Assembly: GCA_951406725.2 (NCBI GenBank)
Contig: OX597818.1
Coordinates: 8,246,001-8,310,000 of the forward strand
Reading direction: 5' to 3'
Origin: Octopus vulgaris
Lineage: Eukaryota
Length of the DNA stretch: 64,000 nt
In this document: piece by piece, positions 6,901-59,985 of the stretch
Layout of the letters: each line of letters starts with the position of its first letter
Position numbering within the stretch: the first letter of the stretch is position 1
Position numbers and translations under genes: made by a program
Notes under the pieces: model-generated
The model's input: the letters and a program-made list of their open reading frames with translations, nothing else
Told to the model about the DNA's origin: nothing
The model's database searches: none

Positions 6901-8029
6901 TCACTTCGTTTGTTCAAATTGCTCCCATTTTAATCTTGGGACCCCTTCCACTCAGTGTTTGCGTTTCTATCTATCTTCATCTTTCTGTCACATTTTCTCT
7001 TACCTTACATTTTTTCTTGTTTGGCGATCATATATTTGAGAGTGTCATCTCTGTGGATACTTTCCCTTCAGCTCATCACTGGAAACTACCACCTGCTTTC
7101 ACGCTCTGGCCTCTGAACTTCCTCATTTTAATTGGCTTAGTGAACAAGGCAATTTTTCTTTTTTTATGCATACTTCAAGGTAATTTCCGAACACTCGTTC
7201 ACTTTCTCACTTTTCCTTTTTGCAAATTATTTATCGTAGTACTGGCGTATGTTTTGTTTTATTTTTATTTTAAAATGCTATTTTTGTTCTGTCCAAATAC
7301 TAAAACTTATCCATATCCTGATTTTGTGTTTTCTCTCCCCTGGTCACTAAGAATTTACTGTATATTTATATACTTCCAGTCTTTTCTTATTCGTTTCCAC
7401 TGTATCAGTTTCCTAATGACGGTATGCGATACTTGTTGACGCCAGAGGGCTGGTTTCGTTTCTAATGCACCAAAACACTGAAAAACCTCTGGGTTGATAC
7501 TTGATGAGTTATATTCTGTTTGTTATGGTCTGACCGTTTATGTATTTTCTTTCATTTTAGATACTGATACAAGCAACATCATGTCCTCACACCATGCTAT
7601 ATAGATTATATTGAATATTCGCTTACATATGGATCTAAACCTCGTTGATTCAAAATTCAGCCTAAGCTTATGATCAGATGAAAGCCATTGAAAGAAATTG
7701 ATGAGCTGCTTTTTGGGATAAAAATTTATATATGCATCTCGCATATGTGTTTAGTTCTCAACAGGACATTATCACTCTGTGATGTTTCGCTCCTGTGGGA
7801 TAGCGTATCATCATACGCTGCATATACAGACTGTGAATACCATATATAATCATTCTCATACGTATTTACCACAATTCACACTTCGTCGGAGCCGCAAAAA
7901 AAAAAAAAAAAACGAGGAAAGGGCATCCCATATGGAATGCCATGAAGATCACACAATACTAAACCTGTTGGGCAATGGGGTAAAACTATTGTGTTGTCAT
8001 TTTGTAAAGTATTAATAGCAGGTAAAAGT

Positions 8030-8200
8030 GATGAACTTCTCGAGGAAACACCGGATGTCAATGAACATCAAATGGCTGGCCCAATCCAGAGGGTTTTCAT
8101 TGGACCCATAAATTATCAGCTATGGCATCATAATGTGACTGAGAAGTATTGGTTGCTGCAGGTAAACTTTGGACGTGTCGTCAGCCGAGACCTTCCAAGA
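8030..8200 (+). pseudogene. Possible Tc1/maT transposase C-terminal remnant
   Basis: WP...(D)PINYQLW..TEK resembles WPPxSPDLNPLDYxLW; no TIRs recognised. Confidence 0.2.
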
Positions 8201-8795
8201 TACGGATGGTGTAACGGAAGTGTTCTGCATCACCTCACCTGATACACAAACATTGATCATAGGATGAGATATGCAGGACATCTGCTATCACGCGCAGGCT
8301 GATTTCGTCTATCAGCTACGTCCATTGTAGAGATAATCCTGCCATATTTCTTTGGGTGTCCGTGGCGGAAAAGATTTATAGATATTTTACGACTGAAATC
8401 AAACACTTCTTCATTCCTTCAAGACCTTACTAACTTCCTCATGTTTCAGCTGAAGGAAAAGTTGCTCCTTAGCTAATTTCTTGTATTGTAATAAACATGA
8501 TCCGAGTAAAGCATGAACCATAGATTGCAGTAGAAACCTGGGAAGAACAATTTCATTTTGGATCCGATTCCCCGTTGTCTTCATGGGTTTTCCAAGTTTA
8601 TCTCGTGGCTATATACTCCGCTTGGGAAAGCTTTTTTTTGATTTTTTTTATTTATCCTTTTCTAATCATTTGTATATAATCCGGATGTTTTCATCCTGAA
8701 TTGTCCTCGATCATAGTGAGTTATTTAACTTGAGAATATATAGCTTCTCTTGTGATGAATTATGGTATCATTATAATTAATATTATTATTATTAA

Positions 8796-9619: not shown

Positions 9620-12600
9620 CTATGTTTGACTTTTGCTTTATGTCTGTACAAGTTGGCTCCAAGTCTCACCCAGAGACCTCAAGAAACAACAGGTGGGAAG
9701 TTCACGTTGTTGTTATGCCTAGTGTGCCAAATATTTGGGTTTTTTTTCTTTTGGTGTTGTACTAGTGAATGTCTAAAACATAAATTTAAAAGTAAAAAAA
9801 AGTTTGTTTTAAACCTTGGCATTACATAGAGAGTATTTTGCGTAGGATATGAGCAGTTCCCATGAGCTCTATCTTTTGAATTTCTGCCATTTTGGGGTTT
9901 CCTGGTATCTGAGTTAGGTAGCAATCAGCCCTTTTCGCTATCATTCCCAGGGCACCTATGACAACAGGTATTGTTTTAGTCTTCAAGTTCCACATTTTGT
10001 TGACAGATACGTTTATATCGATTGGGACAGTCATATCAATGAGGAGGCATGTTCTTTGTCTGAAGTCTTTCAATATAATGTCTGGCCTATTTGCATCTAT
10101 CTTCCTGTCAGTTTGAATGGTGAAGTTCCAGAGGAGTGAGATGTGGTCATTTTCAAGCACTGGAGGTGGATTGTGTTCCCACCAGTTTTTTTCATGGGGC
10201 AAATCCAGGCTTTTGAAAATTACCAGTGAATATATTGTGCAGCTCTATCATGCCTGCTGAGGTACTCTGTAGGCGCTAGAAGACTGCATTCGGAGACAAC
10301 ATGATCAATGGTTTCATTTTGTTGTCGGCATACACGACATGTTGGGCTACTGCCGGTCTTTAATATGTTGGCCTGGTAGTTTCTTATTGGTAGGCATTGA
10401 TCTTGAGCTGCTATGATGAACCCTTCTGTTTCAGATTTTAAGCCAGAGGCCATTAGCCATTGATGGGTCAAGGCTTTGTCAATATCTGCATTATTCGCTT
10501 TCTTTAGGTATTTGCCATAGAGAGGTTTTTCTTGCCATTTATTATTCAGAATGTCTAAGGCCGCAATTTTGGCACGGGTTTTCATGCGCCTAGCTTTTTC
10601 TGTGCTTGTTACTTGTATGTCTATCTCTAATTCCGAAATTTGCTGTATTCGGAATTCACTTAGATATTCCTTTGCCCGATTTGTTACTGAGTATGCTGCT
10701 TTCTTGTTTTCATCTTTTGAGGTGTCTAGGCCAATTGTAGCAATCTTCATTGTTATTGCCAGTTGCAAAAGACCACGGCCTCCCTCTTTTCTTGGCAGAT
10801 AAAGTCGTTCTGTATCTGCCTGAGGGTGGTGCATTCTATGCATTGTCAACGGTTTTCTTATTTTTCTGTCCAGCTGACATATTTCAGTAATTGACTAGTT
10901 AACGATATTGAAACTGTAAGTCACGACTGGTATGGCTAATGCATTGATCGCTTCGATCCTGTTTCTTGCATTCAGCTCTGTCTTGAGTAATGCGCTCACT
11001 CTTCGATAGCATTCTCTCCTGATCCTTTCCTTCATCTCTGAATGCCTTATTCCGTTCCCTTCAATTACCCCTAGGTACTTGTAGCTCTCCGCTGGGTCTA
11101 GTTCTTTTATGACATTCTGCTGGTCAAGGTTAACGTTAGATGTTTCTGTCATTTTTCCTTTGATAAAGGTAGCTTTTGCACATTTATCGAGGCCGAATTG
11201 CATTCTGATGTCGTCACTGAATTGTTTGACTATCGCTAGTAAGCCCTTGAGTTGTTGGTCATTTTTTGCAAAAAGCTTTAAATCATCCATGTAAATGAAA
11301 TGATTTATATTTTTATCAAACATTTTATACCCGTACTGTGCGTCATTGAGCAGTTTTGAGGGAGGTATTAAGGCTAAACAAAAGAGGAGTGGTGACAGTG
11401 AGTCACCCTGGAAAATGCCACACGAAATTTTCACATCACCAGCATTTAGGGATTCATTGTTACTGTTCAGAGTTAGTGTCGTACTCCATGATCTCATACT
11501 TACAGTCAAAAGTTTCGCAGAGTAGGTGTTATCTTATACATTTCCAGGCATTTCCTAATTCAGCTATGTGGTAGGCTATCAAAAGCCTTTTTATAGTCTA
11601 TCCAGGCTATTGATAAGTTTTTGTGTCATTTGTGACAATCTTCTAAGATCATTTTATTGATGAGTAGTTGATCTTTACAGCCGTAGGATCCACGTTTACA
11701 TCCTTTCTGTTCATTAGGGAATATGTTGCTGTCTGTTAAAAAACTATAAGTATATTCCGTCAGGACAGATGTTAGCGTTTTGTACATAGTTGCTAAGCAG
11801 GTTATGGGTCTATAGTTTTTTGGTTCATTTGTTTCTTTACTTTTTGGAAGCAGGAATGTTAACCCATTAACAAGCCAAGGAGGCATCCTACTAGGGTGTT
11901 TCAAAACATTGTACAGTTCTGTTAGCAGATCATGGCTCTCTGGGAGGGCATTCAGCCAGAAGTTAGGAATTTTATCCTTTCCTGGAGACTTCCATTTGCT
12001 TGACCTCATGAGAGCAGATCTTATATCTTCTACCGTGACACCCTCCCACTTTTGCACTTCTAAGGGGTCCATTTCTGTAGATATTCTGTCAATCCAGGGG
12101 GCCTTTTCGTTGTGTGTTTTTTCTTCTGCCCAAATTTTATTCCAAAATCCCTGCACTTCTTTTGATGGTACAGACTTTATAGTAAACGCTGTTTTTCCTA
12201 TCTTCCTGTAAAAATTCTTGGGGTTATCTTTGAACATGTTGTTGTCCTTGAAAACTCTAATACGCTTTTCATACCTTGCTATGCGGGCAGCTTTGGCAGA
12301 TACCTTTTGTTTGATGGTTTCTATGGTGGCATCAATATCAAGTATAGTTCTCATATTGTATTTTTTCCGCGATTTTGGGGTTTTTGTAGGTTTGGTATTC
12401 TTGTGAACCCTAAGGTTTTTCAAATATTCAATGTCAGATCTAAATAGTTTAATTTGTTGTTGCAGACACTCTTGCCAAGAAGGCTTTTTGTGGAAATGTT
12501 GCCGTTTTCTAATCTTTACACCACATAGGATCGTTGAGATTTTCGCGGATGCATAGTGTACGTGGTTGAGATTTGTGATATCAACATCATTAGCTGAAAT

Positions 12601-13590
12601 TATATCCTTAAGTGCAAGCCGGATTTTACCAATTATTTTCATGTTTTGGTTAGAGTTGCGGATTTTAGGTAGTGTATCACGTTCATCCTTGCTGGTTTCT
12701 TTAATTTTCAGCCATTCAATCATGATTTGATTTTTTAGCTCATGTAGTAATTTTGGGTCAATATTTGTGTGACTTTCTTTATCTATTTGATGTTCATCTG
12801 TCTTAGTGTTTATGATTGGTTCAGGGAGTATTTCACTTTGCCTATCACTTATACTAAATCTTTCAATCCTTACTTCGTTTTTATCAGCCTTGGGCTGGTC
12901 TATAATTATTTCCTCTGTATTATCTTCTCTAGCTGTAGCGTCGTTCATTTTATCCGATATTGCTTGTCTAACTTGATCAATCTCTACTTCAGTCAGTAAT
13001 TTTTTTTTTATAATGTTTCTTCTGACGTTGGCAAGTTTGTTACTGTCTATGTAGGGTCTTACTCCAGGGTGTTTCTGTCTCCAGTTTAAGTATGTTTGTA
13101 CAGTGTTAGATTTATCTATGGGGAAATATATAGCATGGCAGAAGGCCTCAAGAACTTCTTTATTATCTTCCCTAGACCATTTTCCTTCTTTTTCTTTTGA
13201 TTATTTGGTGACGAGCATGGATGGCCATCTGTTGGGATATTCCGGTTGTGGGGTACGTCCAGCTCATGTGTGTTGGGAAGATTTGATCCAGTAGCCGATT
13301 TTTCAATCAGAATTTGGTTCAATTTTTGGGTACGTGGTCTTTTGTAGTCCGCTCGCAATTACCTTGAAACTATAGTCCGTATGTAGTACTCGGGTCTTGG
13401 AGGGAGGATGACCTCCCTTTGCAAATAACACAAGGGCACTGAGATAGTGTCTAAAGTCCTTCTGGTGACGTTGATCGCCTGGGGCTAAAGGCATCAGTAA
13501 CATCCCCCCCTTTCCAGTGGCTAGCCACATTCAGATGGCTAATACCCCTTACGTTGTCGAGTGGTTACTGTTTATATCTCGTTCAGAGAT
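9620..13590 (-). mobile_element. R4/Dong-clade non-LTR retrotransposon (copy A), apparently full length but inactivated
   Basis: ORF pieces carry RT motifs (KSPGKD, NYRPITCL, EQKGC, GIFQGDSLSPLLF, YMDDLKLF, YKYLG), CCHC finger CRVC..ETIDHVVSEC, RHDR and REL endonuclease RPDI..LIDMTVP. (AAT)n flanks both ends (9599-9619, 13591-13602). Confidence 0.92.
9822..13300 (-). pseudogene. Disrupted single ORF of copy A (RT + zinc finger + REL endonuclease)
   Basis: Collinear fragments at 13116-13358, 11626-12948, 10895-11509, 10220-10849 and 9822-10202, separated by stops, frameshifts and small deletions. Confidence 0.9.
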
Positions 13591-13906: not shown

Positions 13907-13988
13907 TAGTGGTTAAAAGCGCGGGCTACTAACCCCAAGATACCTAGTTTGATTCCAGGCAGTGACCTGAATAATAATAATAATAATG

Positions 13989-14023
<35 letters not shown>

Positions 14024-14078
14024 TAATAATAATAATAATAATAATTATTATTATATAATAGTAATAATAATAATAATG

Positions 14079-14155
<77 letters not shown>
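13907..14155 (+). mobile_element. tRNA-headed short element, copy 2, 5' part (head + (AAT)n), interrupted by Dong copy B
   Basis: TAGTGGTTAA (A-box-like), GGG-CTACTAA-CCC anticodon-like arm, AGTTTGATTCC (B-box-like), then (AAT)n; inverted relative to copy 1. Confidence 0.75.
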
Positions 14156-14156
<1 letters not shown>

Positions 14157-17100
14157 TGGAGTACACGGAATCAAGACAGTAGGCCCTATTTGGACGAGAA
14201 CAAATTAGCAAATGTGAGGAGGGATATCCTTAGAAATAACAGACTCACAGACAGTGAAATAAGCGCGATCAAGCACGCAACGGAAAATGACATAAATATA
14301 AGACACAACGGAAGTGAAGAATCAGATGAACAGTATAGCCCGCCACGAGGCTTAATTGAAAGACTGCCATCTGACCAAAGTACGCAAAGGCCTGAAGATA
14401 CAAGAAATTATATTGTACCTGTTAAAGATAGCCAGGAAAACGAAAAAACAACAGTAACTGAAGATCTCGCATTTGCTGAAGAACACAGAGAGTCTATGGC
14501 AGAAATGAGGCAGAAAATCATGAATACGCTTGAAGTTGTAAGACATACAAGTATGAATGATAGAGAATCACTTCATAAACTCTCAAATACAAACCAAAAT
14601 AAAAAAAACAAATCCAAATTGGCAACTATGTAACAAATGAAATAATACGAGAATTAAAACCTGATTTTACTGAGGTAAATGAAATTATTTACGCTTCTGC
14701 TAGGGCAATTGAAACCAGCTGTATGCCCCCGAAAAAACAAAGAAAACAAAACCTGGGAAGAAATCAACCCTTGAGAAGTAAAATTGAAAAAGAGATTGAA
14801 TTTATGAGAGGGGAAATATCAATATTAAATGAACTAATATGTGGAAATGATGTAAGATCCAGAACAGGAAGAAAGATGAAGAGAAAATTTGGATCCTCAC
14901 CAAGAGAAGAACTGATATCAATAAAAGAAACGCTGAAACAAAAAGTCCAAGCAAAAGCCCAAAGAATACGAAGATTTGAGGAGAGAAACAAGTTTTACAA
15001 GCAAAATAAGCTGTTCACATCCAATGCCAAAAAATTTTACAGAGAAATAGGGAAGGAGAAAGTAACCGTTAAAGACCCCCCTCCCATGGAAAAAGTTCAA
15101 ACTTTTGGAAAAGGATTTGGAGTGACAAGAAGACGTACAACATAAATGCAGACTGGATTATACAAACTGAAGGATCCTACCAAAATTTACAACAACAAGC
15201 ATGGGTAGACATCACAATAGCAGACCTAAGAAAGGCACTCACGAAGTCCCATAATTGGAAATCCCCCGGTAAAGATAGGGTGCCGAATTTCTGGCTCGCA
15301 TCGCTCCCATGCGCACACAGTAAGTTAGTTCAGCTGCTCAATGGAATTATGAGAGACCCAAAGAAAACACCTGAATGGTTAGCAAGTGGCATTACTTACC
15401 TACTCCCAAAGAATAACGAAACCAACCTTCCAAAAAACTATCGGCCTATAACCTGTCTATCCACCACGTATAAAATCATAACATCTATCCTGGCGGAAAA
15501 AACATATGCATTCATGGAGAAGAACGATATTTTCCCCATTGAACAAAAAGGGTGCCGCCGAGGCTCTTACGGATGCAAAGATCAACTGCTAATCAATCGT
15601 ATGATCCTTGAGTACTGTCACAACAAGCGCAGAAATCTCAGCACCGCATGGATTGACTACAAAAAGGCCTTCGACAGTATACCGCATCCATGGATCTTGA
15701 GATCGCTGGATATCTTCAAAATTTCCCCTGTGATTTCAAACTTCCTGTAGCACAATATGTCGTTGTGGAATACGAATCTCCAATTATACCACTCTAATGG
15801 AGTACTTGCCTCAGAAAATATAAACATCAACTGTGGAATGTTTCAAGGTGACTCACTTTCACCTTTAATATTCTGCATAGCCCTAATACCACTTACAAGT
15901 GAATTAAACAGAACAGGGTATGGGTATAAAATTGCCAATAAAAAAATAAGCCATCTATTTTATATGGATGACATAAAACTTTATGGTAAAGGCAATAATG
16001 AACTTGAAGGCCTATTGTGCACCGTGAAAGCATTCAGCGATGACATCGGGATGGAGTTTGGACTAGAAGTGTGCCAAGGCCACTTTCCAGAAAGGGAAAG
16101 TGAAGACCACAAATTGAGCCGTGTTAGATGTTGACACTGTCATTAGAGAGCTTGAGCAAGAACAAACATACAAATATTTAGGGATAAATGAAGGCTCTGG
16201 TATTCAGCATGCAAGGATGAAAGAGAAAATCAGGAAGGAATGTTATAGGAGAGTTCGTGCAGTCCTGAAATCTGAACTAAATGCACGTAACAAGGTGTTA
16301 GCAATAAATTCCTTAGCAGTTCCAGTTGTTACTTATAGCTACAATGTGTTGAACTGGAATATGAGTGAAGTAAAGAATATAGATAGAAAAATACGCAAAC
16401 TGCTGAGTTGTAATAGGATGCACCACCCAAAGGCAGACGTAGATCGCCTTTACCTTCCCAGAGCCCAAGGAGTTCGAGGCCTGATCCAATTTGAACTAGC
16501 TTACAAAACAACCACAATTAGACTGGCCAAATATCTCGAAATATCGAATGACTGGATGCTAAAGCTCGTGGAAAATCACGAGAGACGAAAGAAGCTTCAT
16601 TCTATCATAAAGGAAAGCAAAATATTTGCTATTGATCTCGTGCAGGATACCCAAATTGAACAACCAGAGGGAAGTACGGCAACTATTGTTGCAAAGAAGG
16701 TGAAAATGATGGCAATGAAAAAAGCGCACGAGCAATTGGCTGATAGGTGTGAGGAGAAACCTCTGCACGGCAAATATGTGACCCGCAGCAAACAAGCTGA
16801 TGTTGACCAGAAGCAAACCCATCAGTGGCTACGGAGCTCAGGGCTAAAAGCAGAGAGCGAAGGTCTCATCCTGGCTGCTCAAGATCAAAGCCTATTAACC
16901 CGGAACTACCAGGCCAATGTGATGAAAAATGGAGCAGACCCAAAATGCCGATTCTGCAACGACATGATTGAAACAGTGGACCACCTAATCTCTGGATGTA
17001 AAGTCTTAGCACCAGTGGAGTATAAATTAAGACATGACAGAGTTGGCCAATATCTCCACTGGCTAATAAGTCGGCATTACAATATCAAAAGTGCCGACAA

Positions 17101-17512
17101 GTGGTATAATCACCACCCTGTGGCTGTAACTGAAGGAGAAAATGTAACCATTCTGTGGCACTTTCCAGTACATACAGACCGAACCATCAAGGCCAATAAA
17201 CCAGATATTGTTGTGAAAGACCAAAACAATAAAGTTTGCTTATTGATCGACATGAGGATCCCCTGTGATCATAATATCTCAGCGAAAGAGTTTGACAAGC
17301 TCAGAAAATATAAAGACCTACTCATTGAAATTGAGAAAATGTGGCATCTCAAGGCGGTTACAATACCAGTGATCGTAGGAGCACTAGGAATGATCAAGAA
17401 GGGAACCGAAAATTATATGAGAATGATCCCTGGCTTACCATCCCTGCAAGAAGTGGAAAAGATTGTCTTAACTGTTACATCACACGTATTGAGAAGAGCA
17501 TTGTCGATGTGA
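14156..17512 (+). pseudogene. Disrupted ORF of copy B
   Basis: Fragments to 14633, 14723-15145, 15280-15750, 15757-16134 and 16121-17512; frameshifts near 14620, 15105 and 16070 and a TAG at 15748-15750. Confidence 0.9.
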
Positions 17513-19859: not shown

Positions 19860-21935
19860 TAAAACTTAGATAAAACTTAGATATGTTTCGACCAGAGATT
19901 GGTCCAGGCCATGTCTAACTTAATAGCACCACCTGATAGGATTATTCGAATCCTGTTTAAGTCAAGTTTTGTTCAAGTAGTGAGTTCTTGTTGGGTGAGT
20001 TGTATCCAATTATGGGTGGCTTATCTGGTATTCTTTGAAGGAATCTATCCAGACTCTGTTTGAAGTTGATGGGATCCTTTTCCTCTTTGATCTCCCTCGG
20101 GACAATGTTAAATAGGGCAGGGCCTGTTGAGGAAAAGAAATTATGTTGCAGTGTACATGTTTGTTGTAATCTTGAATTTGGCAGGGGACGTATAGCCCGT
20201 GGTCCAAGTCTCGGATGAACCTTGAAGCTAATGTTTAGGTCGTTTGGGCAAAGTTGGCGGTATATTTTCCACATCGTACAAATGATGTACCGCTCACGGC
20301 GACGCTGGAGGGAGTAAAGTTTCAAGGCTTTAAGGCGATCCCAATAGTCGAGAGCAGCCATGCCTTCAATTTGTTTAGTGAGAGCCCTCTGGGGTGACTC
20401 AATTCTGGAGATGTTTTGTCTTGTGTGAGGAGACCACAGTGGGCAGCAGTATTCAAGGTGTGGCCGTACAAAGGATGAAAAAAGTGGTATGATGACACCT
20501 TGTTCTCTGGACAGGAAAGTTCTTAAGATCCAGGAACTCATCCTACGAGCTGTATCGACCTTCTTGTTGATGTGTGCACTTCAACTGAGATCGTCATCAA
20601 CAATTACACCCAGGTCTCTGATATTGTTAGAGGCTGTGAGCGGTTCCCCTGAAGGAAGAGAGTATGGTTGTTTTAGTGAGGAATTTCTTCCAAAATGCAT
20701 CAGCTCAAATTTTCCCTCATTCAGTTGCATTTTGTTTCTGTCTGCCCATTGACTCACAGCATATAGGTCAGACTGGAGTTGAGTTCGGTCTGCTTCATTG
20801 ACGATTTGCTGGAGCTTAGTGTCATCAGCGAATATTTTCACTTTGCAGTGATGTACGCCACTGGAAAGGTCGTTTACATAAATTATGAAGAGTAGCGGAC
20901 CCAAAACAGTTCCCTGGGGAACACCGCTGGTGACTTTTGCTGGGTTTGAGTGGACTCCATCAACTACAACATGTTGTGTTCTATTCGCTAGGAAATACTG
21001 GATCCAGTGTAGAACTTTTCCACGGATTCCAACATTTGCCAATTTTGAGAGTAGGATGTTATGGTCTACCCTGTCGAACGCTTTACTGAAGTCAAGGTAT
21101 ATGACGTCAGAGTTCGAACCTGTTCCCAAGGCTTTGAGTACATCTTCAATGTGGTGTCAGAGCTGTGTTAAACAGTCCCTGCCACAGCGAAAGCCATGCT
21201 GATTTGAATTTAGGAGTTTGTGGGTCTCCAGGAAGTCAGCTATCCTTGATCTTAACACTCTTTCAAACACTTTAATGATGTGGGAGGTGAGTGAGATTGG
21301 GCGATAGTTGACTGCGAGGGACCTGTTTCCCTGTTTGAAAACCGGGATGACCGACTGGGATAGAAACTTTTTCGGTATATAACCTGCGTCTAACGAGTTT
21401 CTCCAAAGGTTGGTCAGAGGGACTGCAAGTTGATATCTACATTCCTTCGGGAGACTGGCGGGAAATCTATCAGGGCCTACAGCAGAGTAATGTTTGACCT
21501 CATTTATTGCTGCTACGATGTCGGTGGCAGTGATGGTTATGTCTGCGATTTTGTGTTGGGAGTCAGCTTCGTTCGTTTCCCTCAAATCAATATCAGTGGG
21601 AACACTGAAGACAGAGCAATATTGTTTCTGCAGTATTTCTGCCATTTCTTTAGCATCGTGTTGGGGAATGCCGTTTCCATCAATCAATGGCCCAATAGGT
21701 GAGACAGTGGTTCTATGCTTATTTGCATAAGAATAGAACACTTTTGGGTTCTGTTTGATGTTTTTGATTACCCATTGTTCCTCCACAGCTCTTTGATTTT
21801 CAATGGAGGTTTTCATGTTAGTCTGCAGATGAAGTTTTTCCAGCTCTAGTCTTTTCACTGTTGTTGAATGTGGATGTTGCGTGTGGGAATATTTTAATTG
21901 GTTGATTTTTTTGTTGAGTCTTTTGATGCGCCTGT
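19857..21935 (-). mobile_element. CR1/L2-group LINE, 5'-truncated (RT and C-terminal region)
   Basis: NYRPISLTS, QHGFR, YLDFSKAFDRVDH, GVPQGTVLGPLLF, FADDTKL, RDLGV, RPHLEYC, YSLQRRRERY. One frame broken by only two TGA stops (21157, 20581). 3' stem-loop GACCA-ATCTC-TGGTC and (TCTAAGTTTTA)2 tail; (TA)n on both sides. Confidence 0.9.
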
Positions 21936-22006
21936 ATATGTATATAAAATTTTAAATTTTATATATGTATATATGTATATATACATATGTTATATATACA
22001 TGTATG

Positions 22007-27461: not shown

Positions 27462-27671
27462 ATTTACTTATTCAGTCATTTGACTGTGGCCATACTGGAG
27501 CACCACCTTTAGTCGAACAAATTGACCCAAGGACTTTTTCTTTGTAAGCCCAGTACTAATTCTATAAGTCACTTTTGCCGAAACGCTAACTTACGGGGAC
27601 GGAAACATACCAGCATCGGTTGTCAAGCGATGTTGGGGGGGACAAACACGGACACACAAACATATACACAC

Positions 27672-27715
<44 letters not shown>

Positions 27716-27860
27716 GCATATATACGACGGGCTTCTTTCAGTTTCCGTCTACCAAATCCATTCACAAGGCTTTGGTCGGCCCGAGGCTACAGTAGAAGAC
27801 ACTTGCCCAAGTTGCCATGTGGTTCGTAAGCAAGCTACTTACCACATAGCCACTCCTGCT
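27462..27860 (-). mobile_element. tRNA-derived SINE, second family (octopus OR/OK-like), with internal microsatellite
   Basis: GCAGGAGTGGCTATGTGGTAAGTAGCTTGCTTAC head, CTTGGGCAAGTGTCTTCTACT core, GGTGCTCCAGTATGGCCACAGTCAAATGACTGAA tail. Confidence 0.85.
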
Positions 27861-46109: not shown

Positions 46110-46405
46110 GTCTTGTTTCAGTCATCAGTCATTAGGAATTAGACAGCGGCTACGCTTTGAGCAACGCTTCAAAGACAACTGATTAGACCACGTTACATAT
46201 ATGTTTAAGCGTAGTACTTATTCCATCGGATACTTTTGACGAACTGCTACGTTACCAGAAAGTGAACACACTAGTGCCGGTTCTCAGTTTCAGCTTTCGT
46301 CTACCAAATAAACGCATAAAGCGGTAGTCGAAGAGAGTTGCCTAACGTGCCACGCAGTAAGGCTGAACCAGAAACCATGTGGATTGGATGAAAACTTCTT
46401 ACTAC
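46110..46405 (-). mobile_element. Second-family SINE, degenerate
   Basis: CCAATCCACATGGTTTCTGGTTCAGCCTTACTGCGTGGCAC head and ATGACTGAAACAAG tail. Confidence 0.65.
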
Positions 46406-46449
46406 ATACATAGATAGGCAGATAGCTTGCTAGATAGATAGATAAATAC

Positions 46450-49617: not shown

Positions 49618-49928
49618 TCTTTTATTTGTTTCAGTCATTTATCTGTGGCCATGCTGGAGCACCGCATTTAGTCGAACAAATAGACCCCAGGACTTATTCT
49701 TTGTAAGCCAAGTACTTATTCTGTCGGGCTCTTTTACCAAACTGTTAAGTTACTGAGTCGAAGGCACGCCAACACCGGTCGTCAAGCGATGATGGTGGGA
49801 CAAACACAGACAAACACACACACATATATATAGTAGAAAACACTTACCCAAGGTGCCATGCAGTTGGACTAAACCCGAACGATGTGGTTGATAAGCAAGC
49901 TTGCTACCGCTCAGCCACTCCTGCGCCA
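49618..49928 (-). mobile_element. Second-family SINE
   Basis: GGCGCAGGAGTGGCTGAGCGGTAGCAAGCTTGCTTA head; GGTGCTCCAGCATGGCCACAG tail. Confidence 0.85.
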
Positions 49929-57602: not shown

Positions 57603-57640
57603 AGGCGCAGGAGTGGCTGTGTGGTAAGTGGCTTGCTTAC
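57603..57640 (+). mobile_element. Second-family SINE, 5' piece, split by an insertion
   Basis: AGGCGCAGGAGTGGCTGTGTGGTAAGTGGCTTGCTTAC; continues at 59698. Confidence 0.85.
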
Positions 57641-59697
57641 TTCCGGTTAACCAGAATGCAACACTAGTTGGTCTGGACTGTTACAGTGAGAAGATGTGAG
57701 TTTCGGCTCCGTGAATAGAAAAAAGAACAAAAAGAAAACTTGTCATTTATGGCTCGCTATAGCGAGCAAAATACTGGGTTCTCATCACCGTAACGCTGAA
57801 TTAAGAATATTTGCTTGAAACTTCGTTTTGTAAATTCTAGTGGGCGTATCTCGCCAGAAAAATAAGAATAAGCCATTTGGATTACCTTTTTGGATTATCT
57901 TTTGGTAGTATTGTACAAAGGATTCCCTGTCTGTGCTATTTGTGATGTTTTTCTTTTATTTTTTTCCTTCTATTTATTCTTTCTTTCTAAATTTTGGTTC
58001 ATTATTTTCATTACTTTAATTTGAGTTTCCTCCCCTCTTTTATTTTGTTTTATTTTTATTTTGTTTAATTTGTTGGCAGACTGTCTTTTGAACTACTTTT
58101 GAACTGTTTTTTTTTGACATGGCAGAGAAAGAACTTAAAAAGAAAAACTCTGTCTTACAGTGGGAAATTAATCCGCCTAAGCAGTGGTTAAAAGATATGG
58201 AGGAGAAGACGATGGTACATAGAACTTATTCTAAAGTTCTTAATTACATCACCGTCTTCCCAAAACAAGTCATAAAAAATGAACTTAAAGAATATTTGTC
58301 CTCTTTAAAATATATATTCCGTGGTGTCAAACATGCAACCGCATGGTTGCTGTTTGACAACGGGGAAAAGGCTCGCCAGTTTGCAAGTCAGCCTTTAGAA
58401 GGTAAGGAAATTCTGTTTCTTCCGTCATATTGTGGAAGAAATTAATACGAGCCTGGGTATGTGGGTTACCCCCAGGCACCGAAGCGGATTGGAAACAAGA
58501 TACCATCCAACGGAGACTGGGGAAAGGCGGGCCCAGGCTCTTAAATGTAAGGGTATTGCCGGCGGTCGATTGGGAAGGGTCAAAAGCGATTTTGACCCTG
58601 TGGACCCCATCGGCCGCAACAGATCTGGTTTTTCCAGATTTCATGAAAATGGCTGGCTGCAGGTATCCGTGATACTTGAGGGACATCCTCGCAAGTGTCA
58701 CATTAAAAGTCCACATTAAAAGGAACTGCCCCCAGGACCATGGTATGGTCCTGGAACAGTCACTAGGTTCCACCTCCCCTACCCGCTCAAAGGGAGAGGT
58801 GGATGTAGTCGAGGAGGCTTCAGCCTCCTCAACTCAAAAAGCATTAAAAAGGAAGAAGGCGGGCAACAATAGTTGCCCGCCGAAGAAACCTAAGGCTTCA
58901 GGAGGCGGGAGAGGGTCTCCGAACAAAGCGGAAGAGCTCGACTCTCCCGAAGTCAGGAAGGAAACAAAAATAGAAGGAAGAAGAACGGGCCATCTCAGCG
59001 GGGAGATGATGTGCCGTCTTCATGTCCCGAAGTTGTGCCACCCACGGTGGAAGAAACCACCCGCACCCTTAAAGATGATCAATTAATTATCTTTTTCTAT
59101 AAGGGCGGGGAGGTAGAAAAATAGTAGAAGAACATAAAGAGACAGTAGATATGCCCTTCACACGGGATCCCGAATGGCCTCCACAGGGAGCTGTGGAGGT
59201 CATAAGTTTTCCCTTGTGGGAAAGGCTTAAAGGATTTGAGGAGGAGTGTCGCATATGGCCGGGTGGCCCTTACACGACTTGCATGTCCTACATGAGTGAG
59301 GCATGGGAAATGGCGGGATACAGGAACTCAAGCGGCATTGAAGATAATGATGAATATATCGATGGATATATCGAAGAGTAGGAGGTGAAAGACCCTCGTT
59401 ATAGGGTTTGAAACCTCATCTTATAGTATTATTTGTAGTGGTTTATAACCTCAATTGTGTGTTTAAAAAAAACATGTTAATTAAGAGGTTTTACTGCCTC
59501 CTTCTTGTAGGAGGTTTGAAACCTCATATGGATTTTTAAAAAAAGAAAATATGTTTTCGAGAAAAATCCAATCGGCGGGTGTTGGGTTTCGTCTCTCATT
59601 TATTCATTCTATTTCATTTTCATTCATTAATGTGTTTGTCCAGCCCACAAAGCTACACACTCTTTGTACTGTCTATGATGATAAATTTTATGAAATA
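57641..59697 (+). mobile_element. ORF1-only (HAL1-like) non-autonomous retroelement, ~2.06 kb
   Basis: 15-bp TSD AAGT(G/A)GCTTGCTTAC (57626-57640, 59698-59712); ~480-nt 5' UTR; one disrupted ORF; ends at AATAAA; no RT or endonuclease. Confidence 0.75.
58119..59381 (+). pseudogene. Gag/ORF1-like protein with damaged CCHC knuckle, basic linker and unassigned C-terminal domain
   Basis: Overlapping ORFs 58119-58445, 58430-58672, 58432-58719, 58676-59086 and 59151-59381 join through frameshifts; VILEGHPRKC-HI..HIKRNCP resembles CX2CX4HX4C; KRKK..PPKKPK basic patch. Confidence 0.65.
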
Positions 59698-59985
59698 AAG
59701 TAGCTTGCTTACCAACCACTGGTTCCAGGTTCAGTCCCACTGCGTTGCACCTTGGGCAAGTGCCTTCTACTATAGCCTCGAGCCAACCAAAGCCTTGTGA
59801 GTGGATTTGTTAGACGGAAGCCCGTCGTGTATATATATATATATTATGTATATGTTTGTGTGTCTGTGTTTGTCATCCCCCCCACCATCGCTTGTCAATA
59901 AGTCCTGTGGTCAATTTGCTCGACTAAAGGTGGTGCTCCAGCATAGCCTCACTCAAATGACTGAAACAAATAACAGAAATGAATA
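59698..59985 (+). mobile_element. Second-family SINE, 3' piece
   Basis: TAGCTTGCTTACCAACCAC..GGTTCAGTCCCACTGCG..CTTGGGCAAGTG..GGTGCTCCAGCATAGCC..ATGACTGAAAC. Confidence 0.85.

Follow-up and report, generated by a model that had tools for sequence, protein, structure and literature searches.

We conclude with high confidence that the insert described here is a dead copy of an ORF1-only, non-autonomous LINE at one particular base of a SINE, likely inserted with the enzymes (endonuclease and reverse transcriptase, EN/RT) of an autonomous L1/Tx1-group LINE that is found at the same base. The insert lies in the window, by which we mean the whole 64,000-nucleotide stretch of Octopus vulgaris DNA that was analysed. 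By sequence inspection, it measures 2,057 bp (57641-59697) and splits the SINE head between 2 copies of a 15-bp sequence (Table 1), in agreement with an earlier sequence-only reading that had claimed an ORF1-only insert of about 2 kb with a 15-bp TSD. The frameshifted ORF of roughly 400 codons with a zinc-knuckle remnant that this reading had described has approximately 421 codons, and comparison with sister copies places its frame breaks near 58440, 58668, 58700, 58970, and 59110, the one near 58700 taking out the middle of the CCHC knuckle. The insert had also been said to lack RT, and a tblastn search with the ORF2 of the partner LINE indeed found no match inside it. The terminal AATAAA reported earlier is present (59694-59699), but it is partly target DNA, its last 2 bases being the first 2 of the downstream target copy, and the element lacks a poly(A) tail; 2 extra A residues were seen in only 1 of 47 on-site 3' ends. 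Identification as an LTR element or a DNA transposon was rejected because the sequence shows no evident terminal repeats, copies truncated at the 5' end exist, and the ORF is homologous to LINE ORF1.

Table 1. Features of the interrupted SINE and other elements of the window.
Feature	Position in window	Strand	Remarks
SINE head, 5' part	57604-57625	+	A-box-like TGGCTGTGTGG; last bases GGT, the junction marking the inferred first nick
Upstream copy of the 15-bp duplication, AAGTGGCTTGCTTAC	57626-57640	+	Distal bases probably from element RNA
Element 5' UTR, first bases TTCCGGTT at 57641	57641-58118	+	Subfamily with start TTCCGGTTA
ORF1, approximately 421 codons (ATG 58119 to TAG 59381)	58119-59381	+	At least 5 frame breaks in this copy
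ORF1 N-terminal part, 2 predicted RRMs and CCHC knuckle	58140-58741	+	Model of sister copy L121; Pfam zf-CCHC below cutoff
ORF1 C-terminal domain, approximately 90 aa, W-P-x-Q motif	59060-59381	+	Predicted small alpha/beta fold; no significant match
Element 3' UTR, ending ...GAAATA at 59697	59382-59697	+	Sequence
AAGCTAC, complement of the target's first bases	59650-59656	+	In about half of the junctions examined
Predicted 4-bp 3' hairpin	59670-59683	+	TGTC..GACA in the family, one mismatch in the window copy
Downstream copy of the duplication, AAGTAGCTTGCTTAC	59698-59712	+	Target-derived; one difference from the upstream copy
Rest of the SINE, with internal deletions	59713-59969	+	B-box-like GGTTCAGTCCC (59728-59738), body, microsatellite, 3' part
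Same SINE, whole or fragmentary	27471-27855; 46138-46406; 49626-49920	-	
ORF2 C-terminus remnant, very old	7967-8470	+	Partner's kind, 25% identity; no SINE copy detected beside it
Decayed RT-encoding LINE	9825-13200	-	PD..D-like motif near end, presumably a restriction-like endonuclease
Decayed RT-encoding LINE, opposite orientation	13971-17509	+	PD..D-like motif near end, presumably as above
Decayed RT-encoding LINE	19960-21951	-	By its motifs, we take it to be CR1-like

A search with the insert alone gave 30 fetched loci, 21 of which match it end to end at 85-93% identity (the self match is 100%), and the insert is therefore not a chance sequence. Family size is a lower bound, 40 of the 2,094 candidates seen having been scored. 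The copies form a shallow tree and differ on average by 4.1% from the column majority; in some, the element starts 10 nt later or with a different 5' UTR. Their ends were checked together with the presence of ORF2: the 21 loci run end to end at approximately 2.05 kb, and none of the fetched copies has an ORF2 downstream of the window-type ORF1, as copies of a LINE that had suffered a one-off deletion in the window would. The flanks were not random either. Searches with insert DNA or protein located 48 distinct 3' ends, of which 47 lay on the same SINE base and the 48th has a deletion into the SINE body; the preference for the SINE, which had been raised as a possibility, is thus near-absolute. 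Genome-wide, 42 exact 3' ends were found, of which 37 are followed by AAAGWAG, 2 by mutated SINE targets, and 3 are not clearly on target.

An autonomous partner sharing the 3' end, which the sequence-only reading had suggested looking for, was found at the same SINE site. This 5.45-kb element encodes a CCHC ORF1 and an EN-RT-zf-RVT ORF2 (Pfam domains zf-CCHC, Exo_endo_phos, RVT_1, and zf-RVT), and the best PDB match of its ORF2 is human L1 ORF2p (E 3e-48). The last approximately 35 nt and a hairpin are common to the ORF1-only families and the partner, a short stretch only, and both kinds of element occur in common arrays (L192). Approximately 80 of 150 scored endonuclease matches are at least 95% identical, and 13 have frames of 1,140-1,150 aa. 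The 14 young partner copies were picked by frame length and not by their flanks, and in all of them both ends lie at the SINE site. None of 6 more diverged autonomous copies (61-88%) showed both junctions there, one of them having a target-like 3' junction. Three autonomous copies stand in tandem within one SINE at L216-L217 (G000:C9:2.663-2.682 Mb). Judging from architecture and target choice, the partner is an L1/Tx1-group LINE and likely a member of the Tx1 clade. Its layout of 2 ORFs, with a CCHC ORF1 and an APE-RT-zinc finger ORF2, is that of the Tx1 clade but also of other L1-group elements, and is not diagnostic alone; the preference for a target sequence, a trait of the Tx1 clade, is seen in the 14 young copies. 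Searches with the partner returned no named Tx1 references, and no full-length named relatives of its ORF2 at E≤1e-60. The abundant partner is younger than the window family (approximately 4% diverged). In a quick tree, a long branch separates the window ORF1 type from every partner ORF1, so the window family did not arise by recent deletion from the partner as it now exists.

The window family is one of many at this site. The first 51 of the 260 filled sites comprise 23 with ORF1 but no ORF2, 7 with ORF2 remnants (none of them with the window-type ORF1), and 21 without a protein match, which are short, truncated, or interrupted inserts. Complete ORF1-only elements measure 1.5-2.3 kb and have at least 12 different 5' ends, and 7 of 20 sister loci keep unbroken ORFs of 392-427 aa. 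Different families are found in head-to-tail stacks with target sequence between the units. The quick tree groups 17 ORF1s, the window family and an O. sinensis protein among them, in a single clade on a long branch (SH-aLRT 100) and places a second ORF1-only type elsewhere, which suggests 2 origins of the ORF1-only elements. This second, apparently separately derived type (L065:7620-9100 and L103, minus strand) is approximately 1.5 kb long and has a partner-like 3' UTR; it opens with the same bases as the window family, and no WPxQ domain was seen in it. 5' UTRs are exchanged between families (L024, L025, L127, L135, L136, L139, L144, and the upstream element of L028), and some window-family copies bear a 5' end resembling that of another family. 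The first 30 nt of many families often contain GCGCATG(C/T)GC, TTCCGG, or GACGTG, which we take to resemble NRF1, ETS, and CRE/E-box sites, respectively, a hint at internal Pol II promoters. No sequencing run containing the young sister family is recorded as RNA; contigs from 4 presumed-RNA runs contain parts of this family at low depth, at which strand, start, and level are not readable.

The encoded protein is homologous to that of LINEs. A profile of 24 ORF1-only rows, built without partner rows, matches the partner ORF1 with an E of 5e-19; identity to the partner ORF1 is 23-26%. A model of the N-terminal 200 aa from a sister copy has a pLDDT of 83 and gave tandem-RRM matches (best E 3e-5), with a TM of only approximately 0.3 owing to a difference in domain orientation. 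The RRMs are followed by the CCHC knuckle (below the Pfam cutoff), a charged linker, and the domain of approximately 90 aa with its conserved W-P-x-Q. We therefore regard the ORF as a homologue of LINE ORF1p, predicted from the model to be a 2xRRM and CCHC RNA-binding protein. The C-terminal domain, which the sequence-only reading had found unfamiliar, stayed so in every comparison made: there was no match in Pfam and none in Foldseek at E≤0.001, the best Atlas match was 0.76, the best VIA-align Z was 4.7, and there was no profile match to the C-terminus of the partner ORF1 (a 3-row alignment). Selection on ORF1 had been proposed as a further check. Between families, dN/dS has a median of 0.18 (range 0.08-0.36; N-terminal part, 92 of 95 pairs, unsaturated), indicating purifying selection; the C-terminal domain is weakly constrained (pN 0.51 versus pS 0.60). 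Within-family values of 0.34-0.52 are biased by the selection of stop-free stretches and were set aside. These data bear on the idea that the ORF1-only elements arose repeatedly from autonomous LINEs through single deletions, or are retrocopies of a host RNA-binding gene, with no selected protein. The broken ORF of the window would fit that idea, as would the nearest named proteins, which are annotated as uncharacterised gene models of Octopus and Argonauta; octopus annotations list such ORF1s in this way. The constant length and ends across copies, the dN/dS of 0.18 across families, the separate ORF1 clade, and the homology to LINE ORF1 rather than to a host gene speak against it, leaving it next to no probability, and we consider it refuted.

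A genome-wide count found 16,273 and 21,129 exact empty SINE heads for 2 variants; exact filled junctions, counted for the first variant, number 260. Site occupancy is therefore approximately 1-2%, a rough figure only because the empty and filled search patterns differ in length. A- and B-box-like motifs were seen by eye in the SINE head; ARAGORN made no tRNA call in the window, and Rfam found no tRNA match on one empty SINE copy. The preference for an anticodon-like region that had been proposed holds for the 5' junction, but the 3' junction, which likely marks the first nick, is found immediately 3' to the A-box-like motif; the anticodon-equivalent position was set here from the positions of the boxes and not from a tRNA match. 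Because the insertion parts the A- and B-box-like motifs, the SINE copy that is hit would likely be silenced.

Occupancy of one base by so many copies could result from repeated insertion or from amplification of SINE and insert as one composite unit, the shared site then reflecting descent from one or a few events. Young families do sit mostly in one SINE variant: 11 of the 14 partner copies are in the TAAC-type, and a third variant, AAGAAG...TTCC, holds one family group (L147-L149, L151, L155-L157, L159, and L160), in which both duplicates match the variant. Moreover, L155 and L160 carry an identical two-unit array (a full element and a truncated unit of approximately 490 bp), which shows that whole arrays can be copied, as some probably were. 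This array may have moved as one RNA or been duplicated. Against the composite unit stand 5 inserts of 35-350 bp that are 5'-truncated and abut the SINE head directly, with duplications varying from 8 to 16 bp, and the presence of at least 12 different 5' ends, 2 ORF1 types, and an autonomous element at the same base. In 36 full-length copies, SINE tails differ from the majority by 7.2% and inserts by 4.1%, although SINE flanks may seem older through CpG content and mixed subfamilies. In the same copies, changes in flank and insert showed no co-variation (Mantel rho 0.05, p 0.165), in a test that left out 9 of 45 family-cluster rows for their length or a missing SINE tail and used only 133 SINE bases. 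One family also sits in several SINE variants. Look-alikes within SINEs that automatic junction detection had also picked up (cluster 0 and a number of singletons) were removed. Altogether, the truncated copies, the more diverged flanks, and the lack of co-variation favour independent targeted insertion, which fits best, over hitchhiking, and make amplification as a unit quite improbable.

The 3' end of the element meets the target at GGT^AAG, directly after the A-box-like motif, and the 5' junction lies 15 nt further on. Because the standard TPRT model places the priming nick at the 3' junction, we take GGT^AAG to be this nick. The 3' hairpin reads TGCC..GGCA in most families and in the partner; 92.6% of cells are paired, with 9 double changes, and 0 of 500 shuffles scored as high, a score inflated by related rows and obtained for a hairpin chosen by eye from the same sequences. 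In 10 of 64 elements, the 2 duplicates disagree at a base that is diagnostic of the subfamily, compared with 1-2 in a hand estimate from decay. In 9 of the 10 discordant cases, the upstream copy follows the element family (L016 is the exception), while the downstream duplicate follows the target SINE and not the family. All 14 young partner copies have ..CTAAC at the 5' side, though 3 of them are in TTAC-type targets, and a partner trimer that occupies a different target type has its own variant plus an extra T at all 3 of its 5' junctions. The pattern in the trimer could also have arisen by tandem duplication. From the way the upstream duplicate follows the family, we infer that full-length RNAs start in the donor's upstream copy and template these bases, so that the upstream 15-bp copy is probably in part RNA-templated and element-derived.

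These observations can be combined into a candidate mechanism. Pol II would transcribe the element from a promoter within it, since T runs would stop Pol III, and the RNA would be packaged by the element's own 2xRRM-CCHC ORF1p. The partner ORF2p, acting in trans as the shared site, shared 3' end, and mixed arrays suggest, would bind the 3' hairpin, nick the bottom strand at GTGTGGT^AAGTAGC, and prime reverse transcription. The top strand would be cut up to 15-16 nt downstream. The first bases of a full-length RNA, derived from the donor's upstream target copy, would anneal to the overhang of the target and thereby determine which distal bases the new 5' copy receives. Every insertion would leave a usable target, which would account for the tandem stacks. 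RNA-DNA or RNA-RNA pairing, through SINE read-through or a short 3' UTR motif complementary to the target, might instead be the main basis of targeting, with a smaller part played by the endonuclease. Of 106 AAGTAG junctions, 60 have AGCTAC, the complement of the target, 28-95 nt upstream of the element's end (3% in the shuffle background), and 5 of 8 AAGAAG junctions have AGCTTC; the final bases of the element pass straight into the target with no poly(A). However, the 5 AGCTTC cases belong to one family and thus count as one event, the motif is mismatched at 2 of the 8 AAGAAG junctions, and the exact motif is absent at 46 of the 106 junctions, including those of one window-family subfamily. 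The downstream duplicate tracks the target SINE, not the family, and site choice set by the endonuclease is the rule stated for the Tx1-type group in excerpts of PMC4494074. We therefore consider targeting mainly by pairing unlikely and retain a partner endonuclease as the probable determinant of the site.

HAL1 has an L1-type ORF1p and a poly(A) tail, and in R2 and R1, a co-transcribed target sequence aids integration. The octopus system resembles R2 and R1 in that its 5' junction seems to be templated by bases at the start of the RNA that match the target; it differs in that its target is a dispersed SINE and not rDNA, its endonuclease is of the APE type, and templating is deduced from junction variants only. 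ORF1-only LINEs known from excerpts of PMC5786205 and PMC5753468 are HAL1 (L1 clade), HeT-A (Jockey), and Ag-Sponge (CR1). As in these, the octopus element has one ORF1p-homologous ORF, no ORF2, and a 3' end shared with an autonomous LINE, and there is apparently more than one origin, the octopus set having 2 ORF1 types. In contrast to them, its partner is of a mollusc L1/Tx1 group, its target is a strict single base, poly(A) is lacking, many families coexist, and the protein has an extra, unmatched C-terminal domain. The label HAL1-like given to the insert is therefore apt for a passenger of the HAL1/HeT-A type (ORF1 homology without ORF2) but not in the strict sense, as the octopus element does not belong to mammalian L1, its ORF1p is modelled as 2xRRM and CCHC, and it has no poly(A). 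Like HeT-A with TART/TAHRE in Drosophila, it is ORF1-only, under purifying selection, probably dependent on a partner RT, and arranged in head-to-tail arrays at a fixed kind of place, whereas HeT-A adds to chromosome ends and serves its host, and the octopus site is interstitial with a TSD (excerpts of PMC5537684).

Tx1 LINEs that target transposons are described in excerpts of PMC4494074: Xenopus Tx1 inserts in Tx1D, and crocodilian Tx1-Mar, with its passenger SINEU-3, in Mariner-N4_AMi; there, truncated copies decided for independent insertion of SINEU-3 (Kojima). The octopus system shares with them a transposon as target, a TSD of approximately 15-16 bp, non-autonomous passengers at the same site, tandem copies that sandwich the TSD, and truncated copies that reveal independent insertion. 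It differs in that the target is a SINE head and not a DNA transposon or LTR element, the passengers encode protein, and one base in one orientation is used instead of 2 regions. By analogy, the octopus element may act as the passenger of a Tx1-type LINE with a specific site, in the manner of HAL1 or HeT-A. In the excerpts available of the O. vulgaris repeat paper (PMC13282606), active L1-Tx1 families are named without targets. Each component has a precedent, in HAL1/HeT-A and in transposon-targeting Tx1, respectively; no description of the combination, nor of a SINE-targeting or an ORF1-only LINE in octopus, was found in the literature searched, with Repbase, Dfam, and supplements outside its scope.

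By these results, the SINE head joins the known targets of site-specific LINEs, and ORF1-only passengers are placed in the L1/Tx1 group outside mammals. As a tentative picture, drawn by analogy and rated less likely than not, this may be a system of 3 tiers: a LINE on a SINE landing pad, target-matching RNA bases that track the turnover of SINE subfamilies, and long-lived protein-coding hitchhikers whose C-terminal domain might help to capture the partner enzyme or, like HeT-A Gag at telomeres, to reach the site. The many diverged ORF1-only families, a young partner with unbroken ORF2 frames, and empty targets that number tens of thousands and fall into several variants make 2 questions testable in octopus: what makes non-autonomous LINEs retain ORF1p, and by which route a LINE insertion acquires its 5' junction.
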